DNA from: Marsupella aquatica
Lineage: Eukaryota > Plantae > Marchantiophyta
NCBI GenBank assembly: GCA_973895155.1
Contig: OZ316891.1
Span: forward strand, 27,255,561 to 27,319,560
Direction of reading: 5' to 3'
DNA: 64,000 bases
Of this stretch, positions 9,841 through 64,000 are shown piece by piece; position 1 is the first letter of the stretch; each line of letters starts with the position of its first letter. The notes under the pieces were generated by a model that had not been told where the DNA came from, searched no databases, and saw only the letters and a list, made by a program, of their open reading frames with translations. A program made the position numbers and the translations under genes.

Positions 9841-10363
9841 ACACTTGGCATTTTAACAGCAACAGCAGGCTTAAACACTGTAAAAAGTTTAAAATTTTCA
9901 GTAGTTTCAGGTTTTCTGTATTACCCAATACTCACAATACAAGAGAGCTTTACTGAACTCTAAGCTCGTCGGCCATACCAAATCTCCACAGTGTAAGCTC
10001 TCCTCATCTCTCAAGTGGCTCCATAATAATGAGCCTAAGTTCCACTTATCCAAGCAAACACCGCTTGGTATATAGTGTGCATCCTAGTTAACCTAACCAC
10101 ATCTTCGACTACGGTTAGTCTAACTATGGTTACATGTCGTAACCCTAGACCTTGAGTAAATACCTAACAATACAGGGTATGTCTTTTGACCAACTTCTTG
10201 AAATGATAATGTCCTATCTCTTGCTTCCTTGACTAGAAAGTTGTTGTAAGATGATCCACGATACCTTATCACACAAGCTATGTAGTGAGAACCTAAGGTT
10301 GTGTACCCCCTTGTGAGCCTTGCATCCAAACATAGCTAGATGACATATGTATTATAACCATAG

Positions 10364-34452: not shown

Positions 34453-35068
34453 CTTGTGGACCGGGCGTCCGGATGACTGTTGAATGGATTTGAATTGGAA
34501 GTTCACCCCGACGTAGCGAAATGTGGTGGGTGTGAAGGGCTCCCTCAGGCTCATCTCGGCGACTCGTGATGAGGGGCGTGAGGGCAGAACAAGAGCTAGA
34601 TCGGAGCGGGCCGCAAGGTAGCTTGCGGGTACGTGAGGAGTAGTTGACAATTGGTTGGTTTGGAGTGCCTAAGTTGGTGCATAACTCCAAGGGGGGAGGT
34701 CACCCATCCCAAAGCTATTCCTCCTACGCGTGCTTAACCATGGAGTTCTTATGGCATGCAGTGTACACACAAGCTTTCACAACTTGTTGTCTAAGTTAAA
34801 GGGCCAGGGGGCTTTATATACTTATTAGTTTGTCTAGAGACCTGTTTTGGGCCAAATCAAAAGCTACTTAGAGGTTTTTGATATTTCTGAATCCATCTAG
34901 ATGCATAGATTGGATCAATTTTGCATGGATTCTTAGCTACAACCTTGGGGCATTGTGAAGCCTATTATGAAGGTGATGGTGATGATTTAGGGCAGATTTG
35001 TTATCACGGATTCTTCGGGTGCTACGGGGCTGTTTGGGGGACAGAGGACCGGTTTCACTCGAAGTGGG

Positions 35069-37400
35069 GTGCCATTTCGACCAACAACATTGATAGCAAT
35101 TGCAAGTGCAACTTCAGATAGTGATTCTAACGAGGACTCTGGGACCAGTTCTCCTTGTCATCGGGTGATTGCACCTTTGTTGTGGGATATGGAAGAGATG
35201 TACGGGGCTACAAAGGGCCCACGACGATACTCTGGTGCAGTTGGCACGATCGATCTGGATGACTTCATCCAGGAGTTTGATGCGTGGTGCGATATGCAGT
35301 CATTGCGTAATGCCACATTGTTTACCCCTTTCATGGTATGGAAGAGATTATTTCAGCATTTGGAGGGGCCACCCATGGATGATTACCATGAGTTTTGGAA
35401 GGCTCATTTGGTCGAGATTGAGGCATGGAGGCAGCATTGGTCGCCTAATTATGTGTCCATCACGTATGGCACTAGAGCAGCTGCCCAACCCATTGCTACA
35501 GCTGTTGCTTCTTCTAGTAGCACTAGCCAGAGTGGCACACCATCTACCAGTACCACTCCATCAACATCCATCGCTACTCCTACCGGTGTGATTGTGACAG
35601 GGGTTGGAGTTGCGCCAACATTTAACCCCGTGGTGGAGTTCTTTGAAGTATTAAAGCAAAACTATCAGGGTGTGAGGACTGATAAGTTGAAGGGTCTCCA
35701 GGATTTTTAGCGCAAGACTGGAGAGAGTCTACGTGAGGCATACACTCGTATGCGTAGATTAATCACTGTCACCAAGGGAGTGACAGAGGCTCAGGCAGTC
35801 CAATTTTGGTATGCAATTCTGGATAGAGAATTGCAACGTAGAGTGAGAGATGTCACTTTGCTTAGGGATGCAAATCCCACATTGGCAGTTGTTTTTACAC
35901 TTTCTGAGCGAAATATGGTGAATGAGAAGGTGGTGACTTTTGGATTGCCAAGGAAGCACCAAAGGCTGCATCTACATCTACACCACAGCCTACTGCACGG
36001 AAGAGCCAAAGGGAGAAGCCTATTGCACGAGAGTCTACCAGTCAGAGACTTGTGCCTTCCTATGCAGGACAGTAGTTAAGATGTTGGACCTGTGGTGGGG
36101 ATCATGCACAGCGGTGCCTAATCATAGAGGGTCAAGAGGAGCCTCAGCACCTGATCAGCGGCAGTGTGATCATTGTGGAGCTCCTGGACACACCAAGGAT
36201 AGGTGTTTTTTACTCCATCTTGAGTTACAGAGAGGAGGACAACGCACACATGATCAGGGAAGAGGAGGTAGAGGTGGTGGTCGTGGCCGAGGTATGCCAC
36301 ATGTAGCAAGGCAGGGAGGTGATACTGCTCCTGCTGTGACCACAGATCCTAAGGATGCTAAGATTGCTCAATTGGAGCAACAACTAGCTGCTAGTTCTCA
36401 AGTCAGACTTGCTTCTAGGATGGGGCTTCCACATCTTATGGAGCTGATGGGGACCTTGTCACCATGGGATTCATGTGTGGCACTGCACATATTGATGCAT
36501 CAGCAGCTTTGACACGTGGAGCAGCCAAAGCTTTTGAGCCCCAAGGAGCAGTAGTGGAGCTAGATCCATAGAGGGGGGATGCATGTCGGCAGACAAAGCT
36601 TCCTCAATCTTTTACATTGTTAGAGACAGTTCAGACTGCCTCTATGAACCTGGTTCGAACAAACCCTAGTGTGGGTAAGTTGGCAGAATCAGGTAGTGAT
36701 GCAGCAGGGATGATTGGTACCTTGTTGGGGGCGGCTACTACCATAGTGTGCACCCCATTATTTTCAGCGATAGACATGTTGAACTTGGAAGTTGGTCCTG
36801 CATAAGTGTTCAAATTGGCAGCTACACTCTGTGAGGACACTCCAGTTGTTGCTACCCATGCAGAAGCAACTTGCAGTGTTGAAGCAGTGAAGACCATGCC
36901 ACCTACTGCTACTAGTGAGACCTGGCATGTAGCAGCAGCAAGGTTGGTGGATTTACCAGCACGCCCTGCATTTGAGAGGACTAGGTTTAAACCTAGTGTT
37001 GTGTCATTGGATAATCGGAGTGGTATCTTTCGATTAGTTGGGCCTTCTGGAATGGTGTACCAGCCAGAGAGAGTGTTACTGGATACTGGTGCTCAGCCCT
37101 TGATGTTGGGAAAGTCTGCCATATGTGGATTGGGATTGCGTCTAGAGGATTTGGAGGATTGTCCCTTTCCCATTTAGACTTCATTGGGGGGACCTACACC
37201 TACACCTACATAGCACATCACCAGGAGACCAATTGATTTGAGGATTCAAGAAGGTCATGCGACAGATAGCTCACAAATACAAGCGCGAGCTATTTTGACT
37301 AAGGCAGAGTCATATGATGTGTTAGTGGAATATACAGTGCTCTACCCCATGGGATTTATTCTTGATTTTTGGGATGAATCAGTGTCATATAGACCTGATT
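35069..37400 (+). pseudogene. Gag-like region with CCHC knuckle plus aspartic protease
   Basis: RRYSG..DLDDFIQEFDAWC; ESLREAYTRMRRLI; CDHCGAPGHTKDRC; RVLLDTGAQPLMLG; YDVLV; several stops and frameshifts. Confidence 0.8.
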
Positions 37401-37816
37401 GGCAGTCAGGAGATGCTCGATTGAGCAGGTTGCCAGTGCAATTTAGTGGACCTGTGGGAGGCCCTAAATCCATACTATTGTCTTTGGCAGCATTCAGTGG
37501 TGTGATGACTGGACCTGATGATTTGATTGAGGGTAGTGCGCATGCAGCAGATGTTCCATCAGTGGAGGAGTCACATGAGGAGCAGATGGTGCGAAGGAGC
37601 AACCTGGATTGGGATGATCCCAATCCAACTAGTGTTGTGCCACCAGTATGGGGTACTGCACAGGCCTTGCCGCAGAGGGCAGCACAATTGGTACATGATG
37701 CATGGCGTCATGCTTTTACACCACAATCCGGAGTAGAGCAGTCTCCTACAAGTGGGCCAGTGACTCTTTCACTATTCGATACCACTCCTATTGCATGGCA
37801 GTATCTACCAGAGGGT

Positions 37817-38770
37817 ATTTGTTTGTTGGATCTATTTGGTGGGATTAGCACTGGATTGGCTGCTATTCTTGAGGCAGGAATTCCTGTGCGTCGCTACTTG
37901 TATGTGGAGACAGATGAGACAGCACGGAGAGTCTCATTGCACCATGTGGCTATGTTGGTGGATTATTATCCATAGTTGTTGCCAGTGGATACTATTCATG
38001 GCTATCAACATGCACTGCCTGCTGATATTTCACTGTTGGGGGCGGATCATTTGGATCGCGTTGGCCCCATTGATTTGGTGATTGCTGGTTGGCCATGTCA
38101 AGGCCAATCTAGAGCTGGAGTTGGACATGGACTTCATGATCCACGCTCTGCATTGTTTTGGGAGATGTTACGGGTATTGCGTCATCTCCAGTTACATCAA
38201 ACACATTCCCCTGTCTACATTTTGGAAAGTGTGCCATTATTGGGTGATGAGCGTCATCGACTTGTTGCTAGTGTTCATCAGGTCAGATCTTGGATTGGGC
38301 CTGTTGTGTTATTGGATGCTGCACATGTGGGTTCTCGTGCACATCGTCCACGCTTGTGGTGGACTAATTTGTTACCTTGTGAAGTGTTGAAGCGAGCATT
38401 TGATAGCATTCCTCGCTCAGCATCCTTGGTGGTGGATGATATTTTGGATCCAGGGCGTTGTGCACAACAAGTGACCCAGTCTGACAGGCCTCCATTGGCA
38501 GTGGTCAATGTAGTTGGTCGCCCGCGTTGTGCATTACCCACTTGTGTGAGTCATTCTGCTTCATATGCATTTAGAGCAGGTGGGCCTGGACTTGTGTGGG
38601 ATACAGCGCTACAGCAGTTAGTGGACCCTATTGCTGATGAAAGAGAGCGTGCTATGGGATTTTTGATAGGCACTACTGTAGTTGCCTCAGTGTCAGAGAG
38701 TTCACGCCGCCAAGTCCTTGGTCAAGCCATGGATTTGAATTGCTTGACTTGGATTATCAGCTTGGGATTA
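37817..38770 (+). pseudogene. Retroelement-encoded C5 cytosine DNA methyltransferase domain
   Basis: Motif I LLDLFGGISTG, II YVETD, IV IAGWPCQGQSRAG, RSALF, VI ILESV, VIII RAHRPRLWW, IX ERERAMGF, X RRQVLGQAM; a single in-frame TAG at 37973-37975. Confidence 0.92.
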
Positions 38771-39002
38771 GCTGAACAGTTGCGGATGCGCTCTGCTGGT
38801 GTTACTGATCGTCCATTAGTGAGCTTGCAGTCCACTGAGACAGTGATGACCACAATTGGGGGCGGGCAGACAGTCCATGGACCTATGGCAGGATTGGGCC
38901 AAGGCTGGACAGATTGTTGAGCAGGAAGGGACTACTCAATCTACTGCTAAATAGCAATCATCGGTTATCTCTTCTACCCTAAAAAAAGATATTAGGGATC
39001 TA

Positions 39003-40571
39003 GTGGAGAGTTGGGAGCCACAGATTGGTCCTAAGTTGACAGGGGAGGAGAGACATCGCATGCATCGATTCCTGAAGAGTTATTGGAATTGTTTTGCATT
39101 CAGCATGAAGGATTTGGGGACATTGAAGGGCCCTGGTATTCAGATTGAATTGGCTAGTGATGCACCAATCTTTCGTAGACCATACCGCTATATTGACATG
39201 GAGAGAGCTCTGATTCAGAGTAGAACTCAGGATTTGTTGGAGGCTGGTTTGGTGGAGAAATCATATAGGGAGTATGCATCTGCCATAGTGATGCCAGCCA
39301 AGAAGGATGTGCATGGTAATTACACGGATAAGCGCATGTGTGGTGATTACTGACCTATTAATCGTCAGACAAAATATGATCGATATGCCATGCCCACACC
39401 TGAGGAGATCTTTGATGTAGTGGGGCATGCAAAGGTTTTTAGTTCATTGGATCTGAGGGCAGGGTACCATCAGCTTCCAATCAAACATTCTAACAGGTCC
39501 AAGACAGCATTATGGGGAATTGATTCTTATGGCAAGGATCGTTTATATCAGTGGTTGTTCTTACCATTTGGGTTGAAGAATGCACCAGCTGAGTTCCAAA
39601 GAGTCATGGATCGAATTCTTGCAAGTTTGTATTTTGTTAGATGTTATATTGATGATATTTTGGTTTATTCTTCTACTATGGAAGAACATCAACGACACTT
39701 GCAGATTGTGTTTGAGAGGTTGAGGGAACATGGATTGAAGCTCCATCCTGGCAAGTGTAAGTTCTTTCAAGAACAGATTGAGTATTTGGGCCACACTATA
39801 TACCCAGGGGGATTGGGTGTACAACAGACTAAAGTGGAGGCTATTACACAGATTCCTCGTCCTACTGATGTGAGTAGAGTTCATGCATTTTTGGGATTGG
39901 CGAGCTACTACAAGAGGTACGTTAAAGGATTTAGCCAGCTTGCTAAACCTTTAACCATACTCACTAAGTTGGATCAGGAATGGATTTGGGGTGATGATCA
40001 GGAGCATGCCTTTCAGGAGTTGAAAGAAAGATTGGCATCATCCCCTATTTTGAGAAGACCCATTTTAGGGAGAATATTTCAGCTACACACTGATTGGAGT
40101 GGAGTAGGACTTGGAGCAGTGCTAACTCAAAAAGATGATGAAGGGCATGAGTTTGTTGTGGCATATGCCAGTAGATCAAACAATTTAGCAGAGGCTAAGT
40201 ATAGCTCTTATGAGGGAGAGTGTTTGGCAACAGTGTGGGCTGTGGCACACTTCCGTTGTTACTTGTTTGGTAATCCTTTCACTTTGATCACTGATCATCA
40301 GCCTCTCAAGTGGTTAATGGAGTCTGACAAGCTTACTGGAAAGCTTGCAAGATGGGCATTGTTGTTGCAAGAATATGATTTCCAGGTTGTACATAGACCT
40401 GGAAAGGTGAACTTGGATGCAGATGGGTTGAGCCGCAATCCATGTACCAGTCAGCAGGATGAGACTGGAGCCAGATGGCATGGTGAGCCAGATAAGGAGA
40501 TTTGCCAGGATGGCATGCATCTACCTTCCTTTGTTGGGTTCCAGCATGCAGTGGATCTGTGGATGTTGTAG
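39003..40571 (+). pseudogene. Ty3/Gypsy reverse transcriptase + RNase H
   Basis: RMCGDY*, LDLRAGYHQ, PFGLKNAP, YIDDILVYS, YLGH, TDWS..LGAVL, ECLA, TDHQPL, ADGLSR. Confidence 0.95.
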
Positions 40572-40750
40572 ATGATGAGTCTTCAGATGTGGATGTTGGT
40601 GAGGTAACTTCTGGACAACAAGATATTCACAATGATGTGAGAATGTTGGAATATCTATGCAGTGGTTCTATTGTTGGCAATGTTGATGCCAAGGAACGTG
40701 ACAGGGTTCTACAGAGAGCCAAGAGGTTTTGATGGGAAGGAAACCATCTT

Positions 40751-42064
40751 TTGAGAGTACTATGTGATGGTAAGGTGTTGGTGGTACCAAAACCATCACA
40801 ACGAGCACATTTGGTGCGACATGCGCACGAGGAGTTAGGGCACTTTGGTGTCAAGCGCAATTATAGCTTGCTGCAGACACAGTATTGGTGGCGTGGTATG
40901 CACACTGATGTTCAGCAATTGATAGCTAAGTGTGTGGTTTGTGATCGAGTGCGAGCATCATTTAATACTCCCACTCCCCAATTGCATCCGTTGCCAATCA
41001 TGGGTTTGGGATATCGATGGAGTTTGGACTTTGCTAGTCCATTGCCTCTTACCCAACGTCATAATCGGTATGTTTTGGTTATGGTGGAGCACTTCTCCAA
41101 GTGGATTGAACTAGTGGCATTGCTAGACAAAGCTAGTGGAGGAGTGGCTACCACATTTTTGGATTGAGTACTCAATCACTTTGAAGCACCAGCTGAGGTG
41201 TTGACTGATCAGGGCATAGAATTCCGTGGAGATTTTGAGAGTTTGTATGAGCAAGCTCTGATTGACCATCGTACTACTTCTCGCGATCATCTTGAGGCAG
41301 ATGGATTGGCAGAGAGAGTTGTACAAACTATGAAGAGAGGACTGCGCAAGTATGGCTTGCAGGTTGGTCATTTGGGAGACTGAGATCTCCAACTACCTTG
41401 GTTAGCTATGGGCTACCGTTTCAGTCGGCAAACATCACTTGCATCCTTGTCACCCTATTTCTTGCTCTATGGTAGAGAGCCAGATTTGCCAACGGCTATT
41501 CATCGTGATGTTGCAACTATTGTGGATTTGGATGATCCAGATATTTGGGTAAAGGTTTGTTTAGAGAGGGCACAAGTTTTTTAGAGAGTCATGCCCATGG
41601 CCTTTGACAACCTTGCTATTGCCCATCATCGTGATACTTTGTGGTATGCTACTATTCGTGGAGGAGGTTATCGCACGAGGATTAGGAGATTCCATCCTGG
41701 CGATTATGTCTATTTGCAGCAGACAGCACCAACGACGCTTGATGTGACCGCAGGGCGGACAATCTTGCGTGTGCGTGAAGTGTTGCCTTCTGGAGTCCTT
41801 ATATTGGAAGGGCGTGATGGTATGGTTTGGAAGGATCACGTGCGTAATTGTGCGCCATGTCACCTTCCAAACATTGATGGCATTGTGGATCCAAGCTTGG
41901 CACATGTTTGTGCTAGCTTGAAGTGTATGTTGTGTGGGTCTGCTCAGGAAGCAGCTACTATGTTGATTTGTGATAGGTGTTCTAGAGGATGGCACTTGTT
42001 GTGTTTGACACCACCCTTGCACATGATTCCTAGCGGATCATGGTTTTGTCCTCAATGTCGGTGA
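40751..42064 (+). pseudogene. DDE integrase with HHCC finger and C-terminal PHD finger
   Basis: HEELGHFG..CVVC; WSLDF; TDQGIEF; DGLAERVVQTMK; then CMLC..ICDRCSRGWHLLCLTPPL..GSWFCPQC (C4HC3). Confidence 0.93.
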
Positions 42065-44656: not shown

Positions 44657-47600
44657 TGTTGAGCATAGACGACATTCGCAACGGCAAGCCCATGAACCAT
44701 CCAACGCACAATAGTCAAACAGAGAGATACGTGGTTCACCTCCACATGAGGCTACGTCCACGGGAACACACAAGAGCTTTACTGCACTCTAGGCCGACCG
44801 GCCATACCAAGCATCCACAGCACAAACTCTCCCTATCTCTCAACTAGCTCCGTAACAATGAGCCTAAGTTTCACCAGGGTCTGGCATCAGCCCTGGCTAT
44901 ATGCACAACAGCACTACCGCTAACATTAGTTAAGCCCTAACCCAAGTTAGCCTAACTATAGTTAGCTCATGAGTCACAAGACTAGAGCAATTTCTAACAA
45001 ACTCCTCCTTGACTCTTGTCTTGGGGACTGGACTAAATGCTACCATATGGAATCCTCAGCGGGAAATTCTAGACAATCATCAAACCAGGTCTCCCCCTAA
45101 AAACCACAAGGGTTAACTAAGGGTTAACTAGAACTAAGCCGTAGCCAAACAGGAATGAGTAATCCATATACATATAGTCACACATTGCTAAATAACTCTA
45201 CTTGCACTACAACTGCAAAACCTGCAAAGTAGCACGGTGTCTTGAGAAACTTTCCAAAGGAATCACTTTGGTAAAGGCATCAGCGAGATTGAGCTTTCCA
45301 TCAATCTTGACTAGCTCAAAAGTTTTATCAGACATTGCTTGCCTGATAAAATGGTACCTGATATCAATGTGCTTCACCCTGCTATCCATCACCTGGTTAG
45401 CAGCCAGGTGAAGAGCACTCTGACTATCATAGTTTAGAGTCATTGCGCCATGCTCTAAACCCATCTCCGTGATCAACTTATCCAACCAAATTGCTTCCTT
45501 TGCTACTTCTGCTACTGCAACATACTCTGCTTCTGTAGTAGACTGAGATATACACTTCTGCAAGGTAGATTTCCAACTGATACATCCTCCTCCAAGAGTT
45601 AAAAAAACCCAGTTGTAGACCTCCTTGTATCTAGATAGCCTCCATAGTCAGAATCTACATAGCCAACTAACATTCTATTTTATCTATTATCAATAGTAAT
45701 CCATAGTCCTGTGTTCCCTTCACATACTTGAGAATCCATTTCACAGTTTCCCAATGTATCTTCCCTGGATTTGACATGAATCAGCTAACCTTGTCCATCG
45801 CTAGGGCCAAGTCAGGCCTAGTACAAGTCATCAAATACATCAGACTGCCTACTACCTTCTCATAAGGAATCTTAGCCATCAGACCTTTCTCCACAGCATC
45901 CGTAGGAGAGAAAGCCGATGATAACTTGAAATGTGAAGCTAAAGGAATACTCACTGGCTTACAATTTTCCATGTTGGATCGTGCAAGTATTTTCCTTGGA
46001 TATTGGCCTTGACTCATGCACAACTATCCAGTATCAGAGTTCCTAAAAATCTCCATCCCTAAGATCCTCTTGGCCTTACCAAGATCCTTCATCCTGAATT
46101 CAACACTGAATTTTGCCTTGAGATTGTCAACCTTAGATTGATCTTTAGCCACAATCAGCATGTCATCCACATAGATCACTAGAATGATGAAACCAAACAC
46201 ATCATTCTTGACTGATTTTGTATACACACAAGGATCATACACCATTCTTGTAAAACCTTGAGCAAACATGAAATCATCAAACTGCTTGTTCCACTGTCTG
46301 GGAGACTGCTTCAATCCATACAAAGATTTGAGCAATCTGCAAACTAAGTTCTCTTGGCCCTTCTTCATAAAGCCTAGTGGTTGTCTCATGAAGATCATCT
46401 CTTCTAAGTTGCCATAGAGAAAAGCAGTAACAACATCCATCTGATTCATCACCAGACAAAAAACACAACAAGTTGACACAAGATCCGAATTGTGAAATAC
46501 TTAGCCACCGGTGAAAAGACCTCATTGTAATCCACTCCTTTCTCCTGAGTAAATCCCTTGGCAATAAGCCTTGCCTTGTAGATCTTATCTCCACCCTCTG
46601 AAGGATTGTCCTTAAACTTGTAAATCCACTTGCTGTCCACCACTTGCTGACCTCTTGGAAGCTCCACCAGCTCCCATGTCTTGTTGTCACTCAAAGATTG
46701 CAGCTCCCTCTACATTGCTGCATTCCACTCATGCTTCTGCTCTGAAGCACAAGCCTCATTGTATGAAGAAGGCTCTCCTTCTTCCAAGATCAAAGCCATA
46801 TCATCTTCATCAGGTGCAATGTCAATATCGTCTAGCTTAGATGAGTCTGCCCATTGACCATACCTGGTAGGAGCTCTAGTAGAGCGACTGGAAGTTCTTC
46901 TAGTAGATGATTCAAACTGATCTGCTGCTGTTGCTGGCTGAATTTGTGGTACCCTAGCAACAATCTGCTCCTCTTGTTCCATCACAAGAACCAGCTCCAA
47001 GCCTGGAGCTTCTCCATCTCTCCTGTCATGAACTACATCATGACTAATCTCCCCCTCAACCCGGTCCAGGATGGGAGATTTCCCCTTGTCAGTATGGGAG
47101 TCCTGAGAACTCTCCCCCTTCTTTGATGATCTGGACTCATTAAAGGACACATCTCTACTGACAATTAACTTACAAGTTACTGGATCCCATAACCTATAAC
47201 CCTTCACCCTTTCTGATAGCCAAGGAAAATGCACTTCTTTGACTTGGACTCCAGCTTGGATCGAAGCTGGGAAGGTGTAAGCACATAAGCATCACATCCA
47301 AAATCCTCAAATGTGAGTAATCTGCTGGACGCCCGTACCTCATTTCAAATGGCATCTTGAATCCAATAGAACTAGATGGAGAAAAATTTACCAAATAAGC
47401 TGTAGTGTTGACAACTTCAACCCAAAACTCATGTGGTAAGCATGATTGACTCAACATACTTCTCAAGCGGTCCAATAGTGTTGGTTGAGTCTCTCAAAAA
47501 CACCATTCTGCTAAGGAGTATAACTTGTTGTGAGATGATTGGTAATCCCCTGCTCCTTACAATACGTTCCAAATTCCCTGAAACTGTATTCATCACTGTT

Positions 47601-51584: not shown

Positions 51585-54324
51585 TGGAATGCCCTTATTG
51601 TACTGGGCGAACTGCCAAAACGGTGGAGGGGTTTGGAGAAACTAATTTTTCCGAACTCCTGAGGGGCTCGAAACTGGGGCATAGTAGGGCACAAATACAA
51701 AGGGGGAATATGGGGCTTCACTAGGACAACAAAAAAGTAGGGAGTAAGCAAAAACTTCAAAGGGAGGAAAACTTTAGCAATAAGGACAAAAACCAATGAC
51801 TCTGAGGAGCGTCTCTTACATCAAGGCATTGTGCTCTTCATCAGCACAATCAACAAGAAATGTTGAGGGCATCCACGGGTCCTATAATTTGAGAACTTCA
51901 GTCCTCGTTCGTTCAACAGCTCCTTTGGCAGCCTGAAGAACAATCCACAAATCTGTTTTTGCCTTGGATTCTGTCATTTGGCTCCTGGTAAAATAGTACA
52001 TTGCCACCATTTGCCTCAACCCACAACTTCAAACCCATAGAATCGTCTGAACTCCAATGTTTGTATAATTGTCTGTTCACCTCCCTTTGCACATTGTGTA
52101 TATCTTTAAGGGACAAACACATATCTTTGGACCAAATGACCTGACCATCATCTGTTGGATGTCTGTCCGATACTGAACTCTGAGTTCCTCTCTGTGCATT
52201 TTCATGATGCCTCGGGGAGACACCCTAGTCCTTAGCAGCCTCTCAATACTTTCCTTGAGCTCCATTGAGATCCGTGGAGCAATGTGAGCACAATGTTGTA
52301 ATGTTGTTGGGTCATGCAAACCATGGCATATTTCTTGTGCATTGTCCTTGTGTTGGTTGCAATGCATCCGTAGCAGCACATCATGAGGTCGTTCCCTATA
52401 CTTGAAGATGGCAGTGAAGTGCCATCTACACCCCCTTCTGAAACTAGCTCCAATTTCTGTAGTCCTTCTCATAGGAACCTGTCTTGTGCTTCCGTCTTTC
52501 CTTTGGAGAGCAATGCTTGGCTTCACATTGTTCCTGTCATCTCTCGGACCATAGCTACACCAGTACCTGACTTCTATGGTTCCAGCATTTTCATTCCTTC
52601 TTTCGGTACCCTGCACTTTGAAACAAGTGTTGAAACCAGGCCTGCTTTCTTCGCCCTTCAGAAAATCAAGAAGCCTTGACTTGGGAATCCAAGCTTCTTT
52701 CTTCACCCACTCCAAGTTGTCACTCAGAAATTTCCCAGGCCCAGGAACCTGAGTTTGGTCACACATGAACCGTGGGAGCTTTGTACCATAGGGCCATGAC
52801 ACGGAGTTTGGCACATCGTCAACCGTCCTATGTACATTAAAGTGAAGACGTCGATGCTCTGCCATTTGTATCTGAAAGTCCACAACAATGGAAATGAAAG
52901 AAATTAATGAAGCTCAACTGACAATTCTAGCAATGTGGAAATGCTGGCAGGGACTCTTTGTTGGATGGACGCGCACTGGTGTGCAAGGGTACCTTGATGA
53001 GAGGTACAGCAGCACCTGTCGTGTTTAATAGTCGTGAAATTTTATAATTGGCCTGGGCAGACGAGACAGACATCCCTGCAGCACTCACTCTGCACATAGT
53101 GTGGATATCCTCACGTGAATGCCTCCAGTTCCTTACAAAATGAAGATCCTCATCAGTGTCGATTCTTTGATTGGGCTGGACCTCTACGGAGAGCAGTTAG
53201 TAGTTGATCTCAAATCGTGCTTTTCATTCCCGCCATTTGGAATTGCCATTGATGTTGTGTGATTTTGGGTGGATCATTAGTGCTAATAGCATTCACTGTT
53301 CATGAGCCCATTATTTCCAAACAGTTGGTTCAAACCATGCAGCTAGTTTTGCGACTGTTGCTAAACTCAGATTCCTGCTGTTTTCCTCAACATGGCCCAA
53401 CTTTCACTAGGTGGACAATAGCACACTGACTACCCTTCACTCGTTTACCACATTCTCTTTCAAAGAAATAGATGCTGAGGGCCTAATATGCACATTGTTA
53501 CAAAGTGGCAAGGCATGCATATGGAAGACTTATAGGATTCCAAATTCCCTCTAGTTGGGTGGAAAGAATAGAGACTGCAACAATATCACTAATTTCACTA
53601 ACTCTGGAGATTCTTTTGTCCAAAGTTGAAGAATGAAATTTCCAAAACATTCATTTCAAAAATCCAAAAACGTGATCTGAAATTTCCAAAACCCAAAATT
53701 GAAGTTTCCAAAAGCATACTTTTAAATTTCCAAAACCTAGTCCCATTGGATGAATTACGAATTCAAAGACAATGAAAAAAGTACTCCTTCAAATGAATGA
53801 CTGAAATTACTCTTTATAATAAATGGGGCACTAACGGTGATGCCATACATATATTTTGATATCCCTTCATGGGACTTCATTGTTGGGTTTTTTGCTAACT
53901 ACAACATCGTCTTCCGCTAAAGTGACTACAAAGTTGACTAGACAACTACACATATTTGACTAGACAGCTACACTAATCATATCAAGAATATCTGTTCACG
54001 AACTAACAAATGAAGGATAGCTTCATCACAGACACCTATTTCTCCTCCTTCCTAAACTCTGTCCATCTTCCAAAACCTCGTCATAGACACCCATTTCTCC
54101 TCCTTCCTAAACTCTGTCCATCTTCCAAAACCCCTGCCAAAGCCTCCCCTCTCCCCTTTGCGTTCCGCCATAGTCCAATTGTGTCCGCCTTCAAGCCAAA
54201 ACAACTCCTCTTCTCCTCTCCTTTGACATTGGGCCAAACCGAAAGGAATGATTCCAGGGTTACGCATTGCCCTTTACCCCTCCCTCCAAATGGGGCTAAT
54301 TCTAATCTATATGAAACATATTCA

Positions 54325-55389
54325 CTAAATTCTATCCGTAATCTGAAGTACTAAGTCCTGCCTACTCTTTACTCTTGTGTTTATTCTACAGAATTTTGAT
54401 GTTTGTCTGTGAACTTCGCTGACTACCTTCACAAACTCCCTAAAATTTGTGGCGAATAGCCCATGCGCAGCTCCTAGGCCTTTTGTGCATTGATTAGTTT
54501 CATGCTCAGTGAAGTCTTCCTTACGAGACATCCACAATATGATCTCTATGTGCCGAGGAGTAAGTTCTGAAGTTGTCAGTTGAAGAACATCATATTTGCG
54601 CACTGGCCACGATGCAAAAAGCGAATTAGATTCCTCAAACCCCTGCAGTTGAGTGTATATATGTTGATATTTTTTCCGGTCTTCAGCTAAATTCAGACTG
54701 GACCATTTTGGAGTGTTTCGCCACAAATACACACGCACATCTCTTGCCAAGGCCAACTCTTGCAACACTGGTTGAAGTTTGTTGCTTATAAACGTATCTG
54801 CAAGAAAACCATTCTTATTGCCGTTGAAGCAATCACAAAACAACATCGAGTATTTGGGGTTAAAGAAACTTCTATGAGGTAAATCATCAAGAAGGATGGT
54901 GTTGTTGTCATTATAAGGTGCGCTTGTCCGATCTCCATTTAAAATGAGGTCATCCCAAATATTTTTCAGTAATTTCACAAAGCAATTTTTCCCTTTGTTT
55001 CTTCCAGCCCCATAAAATATCCCAGTTGACAAGGCTTCCACTTCAGTTCTCACAAAGACAAATCGATGCTTCTTGTTGGGAAACACTTTCTCCAAAATCT
55101 CATGCACATTATGATATACGACATAGGCCCATATCCCCACATCAAATGTCTGAAGACACCATTCAACGAAGCGCCGCATTCCCGGTCTTACATAGATGAT
55201 TCTATTCTTTAGAAACAATGTCTCCCCGTTTTCAGTATTTATATCCCTAAGAGACTTTGCTCGCACTCCCAATATTTGCACAATATGTAAGACGACATTC
55301 ATGTCAAGTACGAGCAGTTTACGAGGAACGGTGTTTTGTATAATAGTTGCCATATCGTATGTTACAATATCTGCAGAGTGACAAAACAA
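54325..55389 (-). CDS. FCP1/NIF-like HAD phosphatase domain protein
   Basis: KLLVLDMNVVL, YVRPGMRRFVEWC..FDVGIW, VKLLKNIW, NTILLDDLPHRSFFNP. Confidence 0.8.
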   Translation of the reverse strand: MFCHSADIVTYDMATIIQNTVPRKLLVLDMNVVLHIVQILGVRAKSLRDINTENGETLFLKNRIIYVRPGMRRFVEWCLQTFDVGIWAYVVYHNVHEILEKVFPNKKHRFVFVRTEVEALSTGIFYGAGRNKGKNCFVKLLKNIWDDLILNGDRTSAPYNDNNTILLDDLPHRSFFNPKYSMLFCDCFNGNKNGFLADTFISNKLQPVLQELALARDVRVYLWRNTPKWSSLNLAEDRKKYQHIYTQLQGFEESNSLFASWPVRKYDVLQLTTSELTPRHIEIILWMSRKEDFTEHETNQCTKGLGAAHGLFATNFREFVKVVSEVHRQTSKFCRINTRVKSRQDLVLQITDRI

Positions 55390-55501
55390 TAAATGAACAT
55401 CAATATCGTAAAGTCAATGCAAGAGCATAACATCAATTACGACGCATTGCAGCGTATGGAAAATCTGACGATAACCTATTCCACACAAGAATCACGTAGA
55501 T

Positions 55502-55770
55502 CTAACTCAAATGGTGACGATAAAGGCAGCTTAGAACAATATTCCTCCTTTCAGCATCCATGTCCTCGGCTTTGAAATCAATAGGCTTCTCCCTACTCCG
55601 GTAATCGGCAAATTTCATGACAAACACTCCGCAGTTGTAGTCATCGGTTTGAAGAGGGATGTCTTTACAATAGTTTCTCGGCCATGACAAAAGCATTTAG
55701 TTCCTTATGAGTTCTGACATGGCTTCATCGTCTAGATATCTTGCTAGGTTCTCAAGAACTTCAAACACGA
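55502..55770 (-). pseudogene. Ulp1/C48 SUMO-protease C-terminal fragment
   Basis: LENLARYL..DIPLQTDDYNCGVFVMKFA (oxyanion Gln and catalytic Cys). Confidence 0.75.
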
Positions 55771-56112
55771 TGACCGACCAAACGAGAAGTGTGACGACCA
55801 AACGAGAAGTGTGTTTTGATTTTGGCAAAAAATGGCAAAAAATATCTTAAATTGATATCAGACACACAAATTCTTGGATGAATGCAAAATTGGATCCAAC
55901 ATCGGATTCCAAATCGAGATACTTTTTGACAAAAAATGGCAAATCATCGAAATCTTTGATTTTAGAACAATTTATCCTGAAACAACTTTTCAAACAGAAA
56001 ACCCATAAAACAATGATTTTCAAGTCCTATTTCCGCACGCTAAATCAATTTCCCAGGAAAACCGTCAATACCACAAATCTCCATTTGATGAACAAATCAT
56101 TCCAACCAAAAT

Positions 56113-57891
56113 GGGATACGCTGTATCCCGTTTCAGATTCATCCCACTAAAATTAAACAAAAACAAGCTAAGTTGATCATTTGGCGCCTTAAGTTACCAT
56201 ACCGATTAAACTAGATTTGAATATTTACCAAAAGTAAAACTACGTACTGCAGAAAATTTACTAGCGACCACAGTCGACCAACGCAGTCAGTTAAGTTAAC
56301 CCAAGCAGATGGCTAGATATATTGTAGACCGTTTATTTCCCAACCACTGACCTCCATCTAAGAAATTAGAGGTATGAATACCAATAGGGATCCATGGATC
56401 CCGTTTTATTTCCCAAGTCCCAAAACAACTCAGCCAAAAGTCGGGGTGAATACGAAATGGGATCCACGGATCCCATTTGGTATTCAACCTTCCAAATTTG
56501 CCCTTGTCAAACACCTACGTCGAAAAATCAGCGTTTGAATGCCAATCGGGATCCATGGATCCCAAAATCCGATCCAACTCAAGAAACAAATAATTTTGGA
56601 ATACTCTTTTCTCTGAAAGATCAATTTCATTCTTGTTTAGAATGTGTACGGACCAATGAGTGAACGCCACGTGGACATCTTCCCAAAAACTATATAAGAA
56701 CAAGCTCGCATGTGATTCGATCTTCATTTTTTACGACTCATTTAGGTTCCTGAATAGTGAGTCTCTATTTTTTGTAGATTGTAGTCACTGGAACGTTCTC
56801 TTCCCCATAGGAATCCTTAGTCCTATAGAACCTTGATACTATCGATGGTGTCTTCAGGCGATGAGTCGATTTATAGTTCTGATGCATCTTCGCCAGATGT
56901 TGTTCGCAAATTCATTCCATCTTGTTTGATGAAGGAGCTTCCAGTCTCACATAGAGTTTTGCCAGAGATGTCATTTTCATCAGATTCAGAGAGTTCAGGG
57001 TCTGATTCCGAGTCTGGGAGAAGTGTTGTTAGAGCTCCAACATCTTATTATGTTTCTCCAAGCAAACCACTTAAACGGCGTTTGCTTGGGAGAAAGTCCA
57101 CTATCATACCCTTAGGTCAGACTAGTTCACCACGAACCCCACCAGATGCACCCAAACGGAGGCCTCAATTTCTAATGCCAAGAACGATGTTACCATGTAG
57201 GCCCGCCAAGAGATCTCCTTTGGTTTTTCCAATGTCGCATTCTCCTGGAGTCTAGATAGCTTTGTCCAGTGTGCAATCACAATTTGAGCAAATGAGAAGT
57301 CCGACGGTGCTAGAAGTGCCGGCCGCACGAAGAATGCCCAGAGGGATCCCTACTCAAAGTTTGCGGAATGGAGAGCGTGAATTGCCAATTTTGTCTCCTT
57401 CGCTACCAAATTCCATTAGTGGAATACCAAGTGGGATCCGTGGATCCCATTTGGTATTCCCTCCTAAAATTTTACCAAATGGCGAGCCGGAATTGCAAAG
57501 TGGGCAACCTTCGCCTGCTCTTTCGGGGGGAGGAATGCAAAAGAGGATCCGTGGATCCCACTTGGTATCCCCCCTGGAATTTTACCAAACGGCGAGCCCG
57601 AAGTGCAAAGCGGACAACCTTTGCCTGCTGATTCGAGGAGAGGAATTTGGAACGGGATCCGTGGATCCCACTTGGTATCCCCTCCTGGAATTTTACCAAA
57701 TGTCGAGCCTGAGTTGCGAAACGGACAAACTTTGTTAGCTGCTTTGGGCGGAGGAATGAGAAAGGGGATCCATAAATCGCATTTTGTTTTACACAACAAA
57801 AAATTGTCAAGCGCTGCCGTAGAACCGCAAGTGGGGCAGCTCTCACTTCGAAGTCCGAGTGGATGAATACAAGTCGGGATCCATGGATCCC
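56113..57891. repeat. Dispersed and tandem palindromes GGGATCC-NN-GGATCCC, some extended to ~40-bp hairpins; ~110-bp tandem unit at 57420-57800
   Basis: Cores at 56113 (variant), 56387, 56459, 56548, 57433, 57544, 57654, 57765 (degenerate), 57876; a further variant at 62908. Confidence 0.9.
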
Positions 57892-57908
57892 ATTCCGTAT
57901 TCCCATCG

Positions 57909-60900
57909 GTGATATCGCCTAGTGGTCAATCAAACGCCAACTTTGGGCTTTGGAGCCCTTTGGCGCAAATGCAGTGTGAGGTTGTTGGATCTTTGGTAGG
58001 ACGACCAGTTCAGAAGGGAGGAAGGAGATCAAGTGTCGCAAATGCTGTAGGTGTCCATCAAATTCCTCACAGGTTGTTGCGAAGTGCGTTGCCGCAAACT
58101 TGCCCCAACAATTCAAGGCTAGAAGGGAAACTGACGGTTGTTCAGAGACTATTCAATGGTCAAGATGATCCCTCAAGTCGAGATGAGACACCAAGGCAAG
58201 GATTACGACAAGTGGTGGATACTCCGATAGAAGCAAGGAATATAGGTAGAAGATTTCAAACAAGAAATCTCCAGGTACCACTTGCTTTTCCAGAAGAATC
58301 TGAAGAGGAATTGGAGGTGTCTGCCGATGCCGTAGAGGATGCTGTAGAGACTGTGGTAATTTCAAATATTGTTAAAGAGATCCTTGGTCTAGAGAGTGTT
58401 CACGAACCAGTCTTAGAAAATGTAGAGAGTGAAAGTAATACTGGAGAAGATCAAGATACTTTTGTTTTAACTTCAATGAGTCCCATGGAAACTAGTGGAG
58501 GTGTGAATTCTCCTGACACAATACAGGATAGAGTAGAGGTGAGAAGACCAAGCAAAAAAATTAGAGACCAGATGATTCGAAAAGATAGACTTATCAATGC
58601 GAACTTGAAAAAACAAAAAATTAAAGATATTTTTAAGTATTCCTGTTGTGACAAGTTTTGCTTGAGGTCTTTAGGTCTAGAAGAATGTTGGAGACAACAC
58701 AAGTATTATTTTGGTCTCTCACACTCACAAAAAAATATTCTTTTGCGAGGATGTATTATGAGTAATTATAATACTTCCCGTGGATATAGTGTGAATGGAC
58801 AAATTATTTGTAGAGGAGGTTTCAAGAAACTATATTCCATAGGGAATAATAGGTTGGCTACAATCCATGCAAACATGTTCACCAGGATTGAACGAGATAC
58901 TTTCTGCAAGGAAGACTCACCTTCATTTCTCAACTTGGTGGAATGGTTGAAAGATTTCTTTCAAAAAAACATGGATAGTCTTCCCCATAAAGAAATTCAT
59001 CACTTGCCAGACAATTGGACAAAGCAAGAGATTCATGAAATCTTTCTGGCCGAAACAATCTTGCGAGAAGAGCAATATGTTACATATTCTTATTTCTTGC
59101 GCGTTTGGAAGATTTTTTTTTCGAATGTGCGGATTCCCAAAAGGAGTCGGTTTTCCACTTGTGGTCCATGTACCGAATTCAAGGCTCTTCGAGACAAAGC
59201 AACAACAGAAGAAGATAAAAGTAAGTTCACTGTAACCTCACATTTTGTGCCTAAGTAAGATATTGACAAGTTAGACACAATGATGAATAGATAATTTATT
59301 GATTATGTATTATTGTATTATTGCAGGAAAGTATATCAATGCTCTTATGGAGCATCGAAGAGTACAATCACTCGAGAGGATGAAGTTGGCAAAGCATCAA
59401 AAAAAATGCTATGATGAACCCAACAAGTATTTGGGTATTTGTATTGACGGTATGGATCAAAAGAAAACTGAGCTGCCACATTTTATTCGCTATCCAAAGA
59501 ACATGGATGAGAAATATTTCATCCCGATACATGTTGTGGGTTGTCTTATCTTTAATAGAAAGCTTGCAGCCAAAGTATTTCTGACCTACCCCAACATCCA
59601 CAATGATGCAAATCTCACCATTCATGTTATTTAAAATATTTTGAATACATGGGATGGGATACTGCCACGGGTATTATATCTTCAATTGGATAATACCACT
59701 AGGGAGAACAAAAATAAGTTCTTGATGGCTTATCTACACATGTTGGTAGATTTAAAGGTTTTTGACAAGATAAAAGTTGGTTTTTTGTTGGTTGGTCATA
59801 CGCATGACCAAATAGATCAGATGTTTAGCAAGTTCTCATCTAGATTAAATAAGCATAAGGCATTTCACTTAGATACTCTCGTGGATATTATACAACTGGC
59901 ATATTCTCCTCAAGCAAATGTAATTTTTGTGGATGAAGTTGCGGACTTTAGAAAGTTTGTGAATGAGACCGACCAACCAAATGAAAATGGAGTTTCAGGT
60001 CTCATAACTATTCAAAGGCAATTCAGATTCAAGCGAGGCATTTTAGATGACAACGAAGTGACCATGTTTCATGGGAAATATCTATCTACAACCTCTGATT
60101 GGGGAGATGTGGTAGCGTTTGTGAACTACATCCCCACTTCGAGAATGTGGGTTGCAGCACAAATGTCACTAAAGTCAGCAAAAGGTGTTGAACGGGATGA
60201 TGATCTGATGGACTCAAATGGTGCATTATCTATTCTGGTGAAATATCAAAATTCTGGTTTTGTATCATTTCAGTATTAATGTGTATGGTATAGATGAATG
60301 CTTTGTGACCTTCTTTGTAGTCTATGATGTTTGAATCTGTGAATTCATATTAGTGTACATGGTATAGAAGATGACTTTCTGAAAATTTGTGTGAGGTTCT
60401 AATGTTAACATGGTGAATGGTGACCTTATAGAGTGAGTTCATTCCAAGTACACAATAAAACATGAATGGAATGTGTTATTTGTGCACAAGAGTGAGTTCA
60501 TTCCAAGTAGTATAGTGGGGTCTTCATCACTCATTTCCAGTTGACATGAAAGACTTGTACATACCCCACAAAGTGTCTACTTTAGTCGTTTTATAAACCC
60601 ACAAAGTATACTTAAAGACTAGCCTCCATAACCTTTTGAGTCATTCCCAATGACTCACCATCGCAGTCCATAAAAGACTGAAAAAGACTCACCAAACCTA
60701 CCCACACAAAGACTACAATAGACTGAAAATCCAGTCTATAAAACGACTTATAAACCAGTTCTATAAAGGACTCAGTTGATTATAGTAACAAAACATACGA
60801 CTCATAGTCCTATACAGGACTGGAGTCCTTCCCAGTCGTTTCCAAGTCCTATACGGTATTGAATAGTTGTTTTATGGGGTCTAAATACCCCCCGGTTTCT

Positions 60901-61560
60901 ACTAGTGAAAAGCAATTCAGGAGGGATTCAATTACTTTGACGATGAAGATAAACTATGGTGGATGACATTCTTTGAGAAACAAAATCATAATGTTATCAA
61001 AACCCACTTAGAGGAGGGTGAGTGGTTATTTGAATGGGTTTGGCCACAACGAAATGTCCACTCTTGGTGGTGTGTCAACAAATCAGATTTTGACGTCCGA
61101 AGGTGTTGACCCAACTCTAGTTGATAAAGTTGTAGGACCACACAGGATTATGTACTCAGGCCCTCGGCGAAAGCCAGTTGAACTTGGGGATTTCAAAGAT
61201 ATGGAAGTGAACAACAAATGGTCAATGATATGCGTAGCAGCACACAAAGATCCAGGAGGCAAGTTGTTTTGGATGGTGAAGGTGTCAAAGATTTTGACAA
61301 AAAGAGATGATATTCCGGAAAGAATCAAAATCACATGGTACACAACTGAGGCAAGTGCTAAGACTACAATTGATGGAAAATATTTTCCAGAGAAAGATAA
61401 TGTATCTAATAGACTCCTTCAAGATGAACTTGTCTTGTCATCAACAGCAATATATGCATACAATTTTGCACTTTTGACAAATAATCAAATAGCAGCAAAA
61501 ACAAAAAAGATTATAGAGGCTGCTATTTTAGAGAGAGGTTCTGTATCTTCAGAAGATTGA
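57909..61560 (+). mobile_element. Sola-like (DUF7869-type) DDD transposase gene with intron 59222-59326, one internal stop and an insertion
   Basis: CCDKFC..CRGGFKKLY; VRIPKRSRFSTCGPC; ICIDGMDQ; YLQLDNTTRENKN; VGFLLVGHTHDQIDQMFS; continues after 60907 as KAIQEGF..WWMTFFEK. Confidence 0.72.
60252..60907. mobile_element. Insertion in the transposase with one CACTA-type terminus
   Basis: Right end ggtttctactagtg is the reverse complement of CACTAGTAGAAACC; short subterminal repeats; removing it plus one AAA restores VKYQKAIQEG; no matching left TIR seen. Confidence 0.5.
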
Positions 61561-61749
61561 GTTTCATTTACTAATTAAATTACGTAGATACATGCATTAA
61601 TTTGATAACTCTATCTCTTATCACTTTTCTTAGGTGACATGCTTGTGTGGGGTTGTACCAATCTCTTGTCAGTGACATATAATTATAATCACATGAATAA
61701 ATAATCTCATATAAAAAATAAATAGTAGAAGAGAAAGTTAAGTCTTCAC

Positions 61750-62233
61750 CTTTTCAATGTCGATTCGATTAGACGAGTTTCATGCAGACCAGCAAGTGAG
61801 TCTAGATGATACATTTGGATCAAAGATTGAGATTGATCCAAACATATGACAACCAAACTCCAATGCCCACTCATGTGAATTGGCATAAGAATAACCTAAA
61901 TCTTGGAAAATGGAGGCTTGTAATATCCCCACATTTTCTGTATAGATTCTGCTAAAGATTTATGTGTTGATTCTGTTTCAATCCTTGAAACCATCCAAGG
62001 ATAAAAAAGGAGGATAATGTGTTTACCATTGGAGCAAGATCTCCATATTCTTCAATTTGGGACTCTGGGTAAAATTCCATAATTTTGTCACCCAAATATT
62101 GATCGGGTTCAAGTTGTTCCAGTGTTTCTTGATTGAGAAGATGACCAATAGAAGGGTTGTGCACAAATCTATGAAGAACACATTTGAATTCAATAACCTC
62201 CTTTGATGGACCCTGCAAGGACATTATTGTCAC
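61750..62233 (-). pseudogene. Ulp1/C48 SUMO-protease N-terminal/catalytic fragment
   Basis: LEPDQYLGDKIMEFY..SSFF; ILMPIHMSGHWSLVVIC..YHLDSL (catalytic His and Asp); internal stops. Confidence 0.75.
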
Positions 62234-62319
62234 ATAAGAACATATAAATCTCTTTCAGTATTTTCGAAAGTTCATATACAATTTGGGGCAATCTCATTTG
62301 CGACAACTATCTCAAATCT

Positions 62320-62874
62320 CTACACCTCAAGGAATGAGCCAAGATCTAGTGGTGGAGCTTCTGCTTCCTCTTCCCCCTCCTCCTCCTCCTCATCAACATC
62401 ATCATCATTCTCGGCCGCAGTTGTAATGATGCAAATTCTGGTGGTGAGAGTGCTCGTCATACCATCAATTGGTGGTTGTATCTCAAAACTCATCGGCCTT
62501 GTACCCTCCTCAATTGCTTCCTCATTCAAGTCCCATGATTCATCCAACGTGACTAGTCGAGTCTGGATGCAGTCTATTTGCTGAGCACTCAACTCTACTG
62601 CTGTCACATGTCGCTTTGCCAACAAAGCCCCACACGAAGTAGACCCACTTCCGGCACATAAATCAGCAATCCAATCTCCTTCACTAAAATGTTTGATAAA
62701 CCAGTCTACGAGGGCTATCGGCTTTTGATACGGATTCACTACTTCCCCTAATGGTGTTACACATTTCTTGGTAACACAGGGTACCTTGATGATGTTGATT
62801 CTTTTCTCATCATGCTCAAAATTATACATTTCCCTGGTCCTGATACCACCTTCATTATAGTATCCGATGGACAT
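62320..62874 (-). pseudogene. C-terminal half of a beta-class N4C/N6A DNA methyltransferase (N6_N4_Mtase-like) with acidic tail
   Basis: NPYQKPIALVDWFIKHFSEGDWIADLCAGSGSTSCGALLAKRHVTAVE matches HP.QKP..L...I...S..GD.VLD.F.GSG.T..A....R..IG.E; no DPPY/SPPY motif visible. Confidence 0.78.
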
Positions 62875-62959
62875 GAATCAGCCAAAAACGAGGGTTGAAT
62901 CCCAAATGGGATACGCGTATCCCATTCGGTATTCAACCTCTGGAATGCACGTTTGAACA

Positions 62960-64000
62960 ACTTACCACATCCAAGAGTTTACCGCTCCATCTTTCAAGCT
63001 CCAAAGACTGCGTCTCCTTTGGAAACATTTGTTTACAGGTTGCCCAGTCTGGTTGGCCAAACAATTGTACAAAGAGTTTACTGATCTTCACAAGCTTCTT
63101 GTAACTTTCAGCCTCTTTTGCCATCTGCTCAAGATTAATCATTCTATCCTTGACTCAAAGAAGAAGGGATTCCAAAAACCTGTCCTGCTCAATCCCTTGG
63201 ATCGCTCTCCAAGGCGTCAAAGCGAGCCCCCCTGCTAGCTTGTTCAAAGGTTTCACGACGGGTGTGGCCTTTTGCTTCCCTTTCTTCAGTATCTTCACCG
63301 AGGATTTTTGTTTGTTCTGCCCCTTTATCTCGAATCTATTCCACATGTCAAAGATCTGGTCTTGGAGGTCCCAAACTTTTCCAGATCTAAATAATATCTG
63401 AAAAAGAGGTTCGTGCTTCTTCAGTGTTTTCCCAACCCCTGGAATGAAGCCATCAAGACATACCTCCGACGCGCAGGCCTCTCGAGTCTCTTTTGTTTTT
63501 TGCATGCCTCTAGCAAGGAAGACCTTATGCATTGTTCGGATTTGATCAATATTGTTCATCTTTTTTCGATACTCCTGGTCAATATTGTGTTGAATACTGA
63601 GTTTTTGAACATCGTCCCTTGTAAGCCTTGCATAGACCCATGCTTGAAGTTCATTGAAGATTTCTCGACCATAAGCCTCAAACAGTTCTCTTTTAGCTCG
63701 CGCTCCATGATTACCCCCAATTACCCGATATCTCCAGGTCGATGCCTTGGCCGGGTCCCAATCTGCAACCGACGGACAATCTTCCGGAATAACAAACAAC
63801 ACAAATGGCATAGTGAAATTTGTTGGATTCAACTTCATCAAAGTTTTGATATTCTCCACGTGCAAACGATCAACAGTCCGAACCAACGTGGAGTTCTGAT
63901 CATTCATGTCATCGACCAGGAGGAGGTTTGTTGTTTTCAGAATGACGGTGGTCTTCTAAACTCTTTTTGTCTCCATTAAGTGAGACACTTCTTCCCTTAC
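62960..64000 (-). pseudogene. ParB/Srx-like domain protein (5' end beyond window), upstream of the MTase remnant
   Basis: VRTVDRLHVENIK..M..P..YRVIGGNHGARAKREL..HN resembles the ParB-fold nucleotide-binding motif; ORFs 63155-63907 and 62933-63142 share a frame, separated by one TGA. Confidence 0.62.

Follow-up and report, generated by a model that had tools for sequence, protein, structure and literature searches.

A decayed member of a multi-copy, spliced ParB-methyltransferase gene family of plants beside a likely transposase gene in Marsupella aquatica

Layout of the locus and decay of the window copy

The minus strand at the right end of the window (the whole stretch of 64,000 nucleotides of Marsupella aquatica DNA that was analysed) holds two frames: 63955–63158 with the sequence VIGGNHGARA, and 62877–62320 with PYQKP and DLCAGSGST. 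They belong to a single ParB-methyltransferase (ParB-MTase) gene, whose 5' part lies beyond the right end of the window. The features of this gene and its surroundings are collected in Table 1.

Table 1. Features in the right-hand part of the window (positions are those of the window).
Feature	Position	Strand	Evidence or remark
Eight GAT(A/C)C-N2/3-G(G/T)ATC palindromes upstream of the DUF7869 gene, candidate parS-like sites	56110–57902		partly in 111-bp tandem units
DUF7869 gene, likely DDD/E transposase, tail-to-tail with the ParB-MTase gene	57867–61560	+	PF25273, E 1.8e-38; 5' boundary provisional
High-copy insert of ~650 bp in the DUF7869 gene, with a CACTA-like right end	60257–60907		depth jump; joints 60248 to 60908
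Three putative Ulp1/C48 SUMO-protease-like exons	62212–62027, 61895–61750, 61664–61580	-	Peptidase_C48; splice phases
C-terminal half of a beta-class amino-MTase (PYQKP, motif I DLCAGSGST) and acidic tail	62320–62872	-	PF01555; P0139
Intron start and deletion junction, carrying the hairpin 62885–62939	62873–62965	-	missing residues; contig loose ends
ParB/Srx-fold exon and the helical region after it	62966–64000	-	open 63955–63158; fold match; P0003 alignment

The ParB frame is interrupted by an in-frame TGA at 63157–63155 (minus strand) and then runs on to a GT donor at 62965 (GTAAGT, phase 0, picked by eye); relative P0003, which aligned at 47% with 63952–62951 (minus strand), has an arginine opposite the stop. 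The window copy lacks ~165 residues of the complete protein, motifs IV–VII among them: neither residues 488–653 of P0021 nor residues 1–101 of P0139 had a counterpart in the window. This agrees with the first-pass annotation, which could not see the DPPY/SPPY half, since no motif IV was found between the ParB and MTase parts. Loose ends of diverged contigs lie at 62872 and 62959, and three contigs of run X4 depart from the window sequence at 62872; their loose end is in frame and, by eye, resembles the part of P0139 that immediately precedes the break, so that close copies retain the segment deleted here. Diverged contigs of other copies also carry three additional bases at 62679. With one in-frame stop and motifs IV–VII deleted, the window copy of the gene is dead; it is a fossil which can perform none of the binding or methylating steps proposed below.

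Downstream of the MTase exon, the region 61895–61749 (minus strand) matched Peptidase_C48 (E 4.8e-8), while the preceding exon, scanned as 62215–61955, gave no domain match. The His and Asp motifs of an Ulp1 protease are present in this copy and the Gln/Cys segment is absent. The Ulp1 splice sites, chosen by eye, have phases 0, 0 and 2, and with them the reading frame of the MTase exon, which ends at 62326, is kept throughout; its donor (62325) is a weak one. In a second copy (record 14 of contig X2) 62319–62544 and 61786–62116 are conserved and the middle has diverged, and a loose end of diverged contigs at 61669 suggests that other copies differ from the window there. No C48 domain turned up in any of the 40 ParB-part relatives that were scanned. 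Because of this and of the weak donor, the predicted in-frame fusion of the Ulp1 domain to the MTase has about an even chance of being real. A second Ulp1/C48 fragment, this one with the Gln/Cys motif (E 1.2e-7), is present to the left of the element, followed by a NIF phosphatase open reading frame (E 1.2e-9), both within 54328–55790 (minus strand); the two are probably cargo of another element. A single Ulp1 gene split by the DUF7869 element was rejected as an explanation of both fragments, as those at 55.5–55.8 kb and 61.6–62.2 kb overlap, by eye, in the homologous region.

The rest of the window is rich in other mobile elements. A Gypsy-type retrotransposon at 34991–42064 (plus strand) has a C5 cytosine methyltransferase (PF00145, E 2.9e-9) upstream of the reverse transcriptase and terminates in a PHD finger, all in broken frames; it resembles the DNMT-bearing retrotransposons. 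At its start eight units of 69–72 bp (33848–34454) each carry a different palindrome (core GGGATCATCCC), a further copy of the unit being located inside the element at 37600–37630. Copia fragments (RVT_2 and retroviral SH3) occupy 46024–47291 (minus strand), and three long open reading frames free of convincing Pfam matches, at 52077–52913 (minus), 7249–9852 (minus) and 30729–31703 (plus), are likely further transposable element genes.

The two domains and the gene family

The ParB exon (63955–63158) had no Pfam match. Its AlphaFold model, built on 34 sequences, reached a pLDDT of 88.9, and all seven Foldseek matches at E<=1e-3 were ParB/Noc proteins; in VIA the exon model superimposed on Myxococcus ParB 7bnk with Z 11.3 and rmsd 2.4 over 95 aligned residues, and the whole model more weakly on a pNOB8-like ParB (Z 9.6, rmsd 3.7, 181 aligned). 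The predicted structure thus has the ParB/Srx N-terminal fold and bears out the ParB-like domain that had been read from the letters. Of the VIGGNH..R signature on which that reading relied, VIGGNHGARA is present, but its arginine is not conserved (R in 10 of 83 aligned relatives); the conserved positions of the ParB part are R26 (45/51), H83 (74/85) and N124 (76/80). The CTP motif of ParB proteins is GxxRxxA with a catalytic arginine. At the putative place of this arginine (position 84) the 85 aligned relatives have mostly S (46), G (11) or T (7), with L in 6. The domain therefore resembles the ParB/Noc/KorB CTPases in its N-terminal fold and in having a 16-bp palindrome nearby, and differs from them in the S/G/T at the putative catalytic position and in that no ParA partner was seen. 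Given this substitution, simple binding to a site and sliding gated by CTP are equally probable. In the ESM Atlas the ParB part (63158–63955, minus strand) is placed near fungal clusters of DUF3723 (0.96, with 185 features in common), a hint that DUF3723 may be ParB-like as well, and also near a cluster of mainly eukaryotic members, among whose known phyla Porifera is the most frequent.

The MTase half (62877–62320) scored E 1.3e-5 and 25.7 bits against PF01555, just below the cut-off of 26.7, and E 3.6e-12 against PHROG DNA methyltransferases; it is 57% identical to P0139, an unbroken MTase reading frame with DIPYG. The phmmer matches of this half to PPR proteins were rejected as repeat artefacts. 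The SAM motif I (DxxxGxG) appears as DLCAGSGST, and its D and both G residues are invariant in alignment A4. In the full-length relatives P0021, P0027 and P0139 the fold is present with motif IV N-terminal to motif I. The model of P0021 (pLDDT 75.6, pTM 0.48) had CcrM, M.BceJIV and M1.HpyAVI as its first structural matches and N4CMT at rank 14, and the family profile likewise ranked M1.HpyAVI, M.BceJIV, M.RsrI and CcrM above N4CMT and PvuII. The Pfam and PHROG matches, P0139 and the modelled structure of P0021 together support the earlier identification of the SAM-binding half of a beta-class amino-MTase.

Motif IV of the plant relatives is D-[I/F/L/A]-P-[Y/H] (DIPY, DFPY, DLPY, DAPY, DIPH) instead of DPPY, so that the canonical (D/N/S)PP(Y/F) form is lacking in them, as is the entire motif in the window copy; some decayed copies read DFPC or DALY, and the Riccia gene model P0024 is devoid of the motif IV segment. 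DPPY is kept in ten distant proteins (such as P0067, P0073, P0136 and P0145), locus L033 has DPPF, and 21 of 37 phage/bacterial loci have DPPY/F. The same locus L033 carries two MTase C-halves on opposite strands (1776–2390 and 3082–3564). From Chara to Ginkgo, at an overall identity of ~30%, the proteins retain PYQKP, DxxxGxG and, in motif IV, the D, the second P and the aromatic residue. Whether paralogues possess a motif IV, a check proposed with the first annotation, has thus been answered by the full-length relatives, which keep one; the window copy has lost the segment by deletion. A motif IV beginning with D favours 6mA without proving it, and 4mC is compatible with D as well (M.BamHI); from the sequence, the predicted product of the intact MTase is probably 6mA. 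The leading proline of motif IV in N4CMT makes its contact through the main-chain carbonyl, and Asp31 and Pro32 of CcrM are described as forming equivalent bonds (PMC10406627). Since this contact uses the main chain, I, F, L or A in place of the first proline may, by analogy, be tolerated. A search of the openly accessible literature found nothing on DLPY, DIPY or DFPY variants of motif IV.

The ParB part, taken as the query of an exhaustive search, gave 127 relatives, 46 of them at E<=1e-10; a word-index search for longer relatives had found none among 1434 candidates, a blank which, given the 127, reflects its limit of sensitivity. Both domains occur in one protein, as seen in spliced loci and in the six of 40 scanned relatives (out of the 127) with PF01555 above the cut-off. 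Many matches were ParB-only, often reading frames cut at introns or decayed copies. Of 30 relatives looked up among the 127, 21 had an organism name and every one was eukaryotic: Chara (8), Riccia (4), Adiantum (4), Ginkgo (2) and animals (3). Full-length spliced relatives came from Chara, Ginkgo, Adiantum and metagenome contigs, those of Riccia being partial only. One Chara gene model (P0006) has two ParB-MTase units in tandem. The animal relatives (P0054, P0085 and P0108) are from Haliotis, Branchiostoma and Exaiptasia. In Haliotis a ParB-like part is joined to a Tudor-like end, conserved across four species; the Branchiostoma protein reads DGNHR and so keeps the arginine; in Exaiptasia the MTase is eroded in both motifs.

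The metagenome scan, covering at least 593 stretches, gave at least 25 loci, 12 of eukaryotic type among the matches listed, with exon-like breaks at common places wherever the contig covers these. In a tree of the C-terminal half (116 columns) the 22 eukaryote-type rows formed one clade (95/94) apart from the 37 phage/bacterial rows; this clade includes L035, which was labelled prokaryotic at first and proved to be spliced. The tree is unrooted and its outgroup is whatever the search patterns caught, for which reason the donor is left unnamed. In a quick tree of 47 rows the copies of Chara (8), Riccia (4) and Adiantum (3) each made a group of their own. A pattern scan for the ParB part, which reaches close relatives only, found no relative in 55 viral-contig stretches and none in seven from GTDB genomes; what the viral contigs yielded were 24 loci of distant, generic MTases, the best at E 2e-9.

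The DUF7869 gene, palindromes and mobility

The DUF7869 gene aligned with P0147 in three pieces at 53–64% and is itself broken by a TAA at 59632 and by the ~650-bp insert, which corresponds to a gap in the P0147/P0148 alignment. The insert shows a possible 3-bp duplication of an A-run, and its left end has no matching repeat. Judging from copy number and acidic motifs, DUF7869 is likely a transposase, which we take to be perhaps of the Sola1 type. The DUF7869 profile produced nothing useful against PDB, the feature search of the Atlas gave no usable match, and no paper using the term DUF7869 was found in the openly accessible literature searched. Sola1 DNA transposons have a Sola1-type transposase, terminal inverted repeats and a 4-bp target duplication. 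They occur in moss, and their transposase is placed among the RNase H-like transposases (PMC9033089, PMC5751038).

Several observations are consistent with the ParB-MTase gene being cargo of a DUF7869 element, as we infer. It lies on the strand opposite to the DUF7869 gene, is multi-copy, and the 3' ends of the two genes are ~20 bases apart when the Ulp1 exons are counted. All 30 bins of 56000–64000 were covered by diverged contigs in all four runs (666–3696 contigs per run, two organism labels), many below 95% identity, this depth not being a copy number and X1 being perhaps the source itself. In Riccia, R1sor_010795 (DUF7869) adjoins R1sor_010796 (ParB-MTase family); this is one of four Riccia family tags against 25 listed transposase tags, with a rough chance expectation of 0.8% that disregards clustering of transposable elements. 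None of the nine family tags of Chara or the four of Adiantum stood beside a listed transposase, only one transposase being listed in each species; the transposase list was drawn from 380 word-sharing candidates. No contig among those listed spans both genes, and tblastn of the transposase, Ulp1 and NIF pieces against 49 loci gave no match at E 0.01, most of the eukaryotic contigs being below 5 kb. Terminal repeats and a target duplication of the element were not visible in the window, beyond which its right end lies. The relatives and the contig coverage are in line with the earlier proposal of a transposon-borne amino-MTase family, with paralogues that keep a motif IV and a probable carriage in a multi-copy DNA transposon.

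The hairpin of 50 bp, which had been singled out at the junction of the two parts, is a real fold (~62885–62939, z -2.45, two of 200 shuffles as good), but it is not unique and proved to be a member of the palindrome family of the element: 62878–62939 is 82% like 56430–56490, and its palindrome, at 62908 inside the MTase gene, is the ninth of the set. The pattern GGGATMCNNGKATCCC had eight matches against a chance mean of 0.43, and GATNC-N2/3-GNATC occurs nine times in 55701–64000, whereas the 55.7 kb before it contain a single site (1.8 expected). As a contig with 10% differences and the second organism label covers 62886–63077, the junction palindrome either belongs to the intron by origin or stems from an old deletion derivative. 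Locus L032, from another clade of the ParB tree, has five GATAC-N3-GTATC sites upstream of its gene where 0.1 were expected; they first surfaced in an unbiased palindrome scan, the pattern being chosen after the sites had been seen. The other 10 of the 11 eukaryotic loci scanned have 0–1 palindromes, most of them with little flank. We infer from these sequence patterns that the palindromes would be parS-like sites recognised by the ParB part.

Proposed function, alternatives and known systems

The locus holds a decayed ParB-MTase gene, one of many copies of a spliced gene in plants, beside a likely transposase. We lean slightly towards the reading that intact copies would bind the GAT(A/C)C palindromes and would methylate the DNA of the element, the probable target being N6 of adenine. 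The ParB-MTase gene would travel as cargo of the DUF7869 element, its ParB part would recognise the palindromes of the element as parS-like sites, and its MTase would write 6mA at or around them. The mark might then keep the element licensed for transcription or transposition, with the fused Ulp1 domain perhaps removing SUMO from silencing proteins; an association of 6mA with active transcription has been described for several eukaryotes (PMC4738411). A wider version, in which streptophyte transposons from Chara to gymnosperms mark themselves by means of a ParB-type clamp that loads at the GAT(A/C)C palindromes and recruits the 6mA writer fused to it, an Ulp1 domain of the protein in this lineage taking SUMO off silencing proteins, is put forward only tentatively.

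On a rival reading the cargo is the same, but the MTase of land plants and charophytes has lost its activity and serves as a module for DNA binding or scaffolding; what counts would then be the ParB part (and Ulp1), for example in pairing the element ends at the palindromes. The drift of DPPY to DIPY, DFPY, DAPY and DIPH, with DFPC or DALY in some copies, the erosion of both motifs in the Exaiptasia relative, the many ParB-only matches and the description of DIRS1-borne MTase domains as likely inactive (PMC4738411) would all fit such a module. However, the residues of motif IV and motif I listed above, together with PYQKP, persist from Chara to Ginkgo at some 30% overall identity, and the ParB-only matches are often intron-cut frames or decayed copies. 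We regard a dead module as unlikely, if still worth serious thought. It is less probable again that the MTase gene is mobile in another element, with the DUF7869 gene a chance or nested neighbour in a region dense with transposable elements. The window is full of nested elements, a second Ulp1 fragment sits just left of the transposase region, accessory genes of red algae are described as moving between element families (bioRxiv 2025.02.11.637652), and most family tags have no listed transposase beside them; against this stand the palindrome that precedes the transposase and recurs within the MTase gene, the closeness of the two 3' ends and the adjoining pair in Riccia.

The first-pass annotation saw in the gene a possible source or relative of plant 4mC writers, and this finds no support. 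The family shares with DN4MT1 the beta class, the bacterial type and the occurrence in early land plants, and N4CMT is among the structural matches, but the intact motifs IV start with D, no member being seen with S there, versus TSPPY in DN4MT1 (bioRxiv 10.1101/2021.02.12.428880) and SPPY in N4CMT (PMC10406627), and the main text of the DN4MT1 preprint has no ParB. Domestication as a host methylation gene is opposed by copies that are numerous, lineage-expanded and often broken, so that both a close kinship to DN4MT1 and a host role appear very improbable. Bacterial or phage ParB-MTase DNA, present as a contaminant or recent insertion, is the least credible origin and largely refuted: the domain pair is described as typical of phage loci (PMC4738411) and PHROG profiles matched, yet the relatives have common introns, the named ones are all eukaryotic, they form a separate clade, the context is one of retrotransposons, and the ParB patterns, within their reach of close relatives, were missing from the viral and GTDB stretches.

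The reading we prefer, an element-borne ParB-MTase acting on its own palindromes, has published counterparts. ParB and N4C/N6A MTase accessory genes of algal transposons have been described, a precedent absent from the first-pass annotation, and the accessory protein of Ectocarpus Sola1-1_Ec32 is proposed to bind and modify its own element (PMC12477816). As in Sola1-1_Ec32, where the gene lies opposite the transposase of a large DNA transposon, a single protein here combines a ParB-like domain with an amino-MTase, its gene being on the strand opposite to a likely transposase; set against that description, the present family differs in its streptophyte hosts, drifted motif IV, palindrome family and possible Ulp1 extension. 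The red-algal Plavaka genes PAG2/PAG3 also combine a transposon-borne PF01555 MTase with a ParB-like domain, inverted repeats next to the ParB-like PAG3 gene of Bostrychia being proposed as its sites, and the best match reported for PAG3, 7BNR, was among the top matches here too (bioRxiv 10.1101/2025.02.11.637652). In Plavaka (EnSpm-type), as described, these are separate genes, the MTase with SET and the ParB with a 2OG oxygenase, in contrast to the one protein beside DUF7869. With CcrM, M.BceJIV, M1.HpyAVI and M.RsrI the family shares the fold, motif IV before motif I and the QKP motif, and it is set apart from prokaryotic 6mA MTases and phage ParB-MTase loci by being a spliced eukaryotic gene in a separate clade with D-[IFLA]-P-[YH]. 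MpDN4MT1 of Marchantia and N4CMT of bdelloid rotifers are likewise eukaryotic beta-class amino-MTases of bacterial type; they are host genes with SPPY which make 4mC, N4CMT carrying a chromodomain (PMC8885841), and neither main text mentions ParB.

In the openly accessible literature searched, no description of land-plant ParB-MTase members was found and the accounts of ParB with MTase in DNA transposons are algal. The ParB-MTase class itself is in print for algae, and what is added here is the transposase linkage, the conserved palindrome half-site and the possible Ulp1 fusion. The algal idea is a proposal, which this family extends to land plants, offering intact proteins and a candidate site, whose GAT(A/C)C half-site is found again in an element where the ParB is a distant one. 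Should the enzyme prove active, part of the 6mA of plants would be set by a mobile enzyme dedicated to it, and eukaryotes would possess a programmable writer of the ParB/parS-like kind; were the wider version true as well, land plants would harbour a transposon-encoded system of adenine methylation and anti-silencing that follows the bacterial parS/ParB logic.
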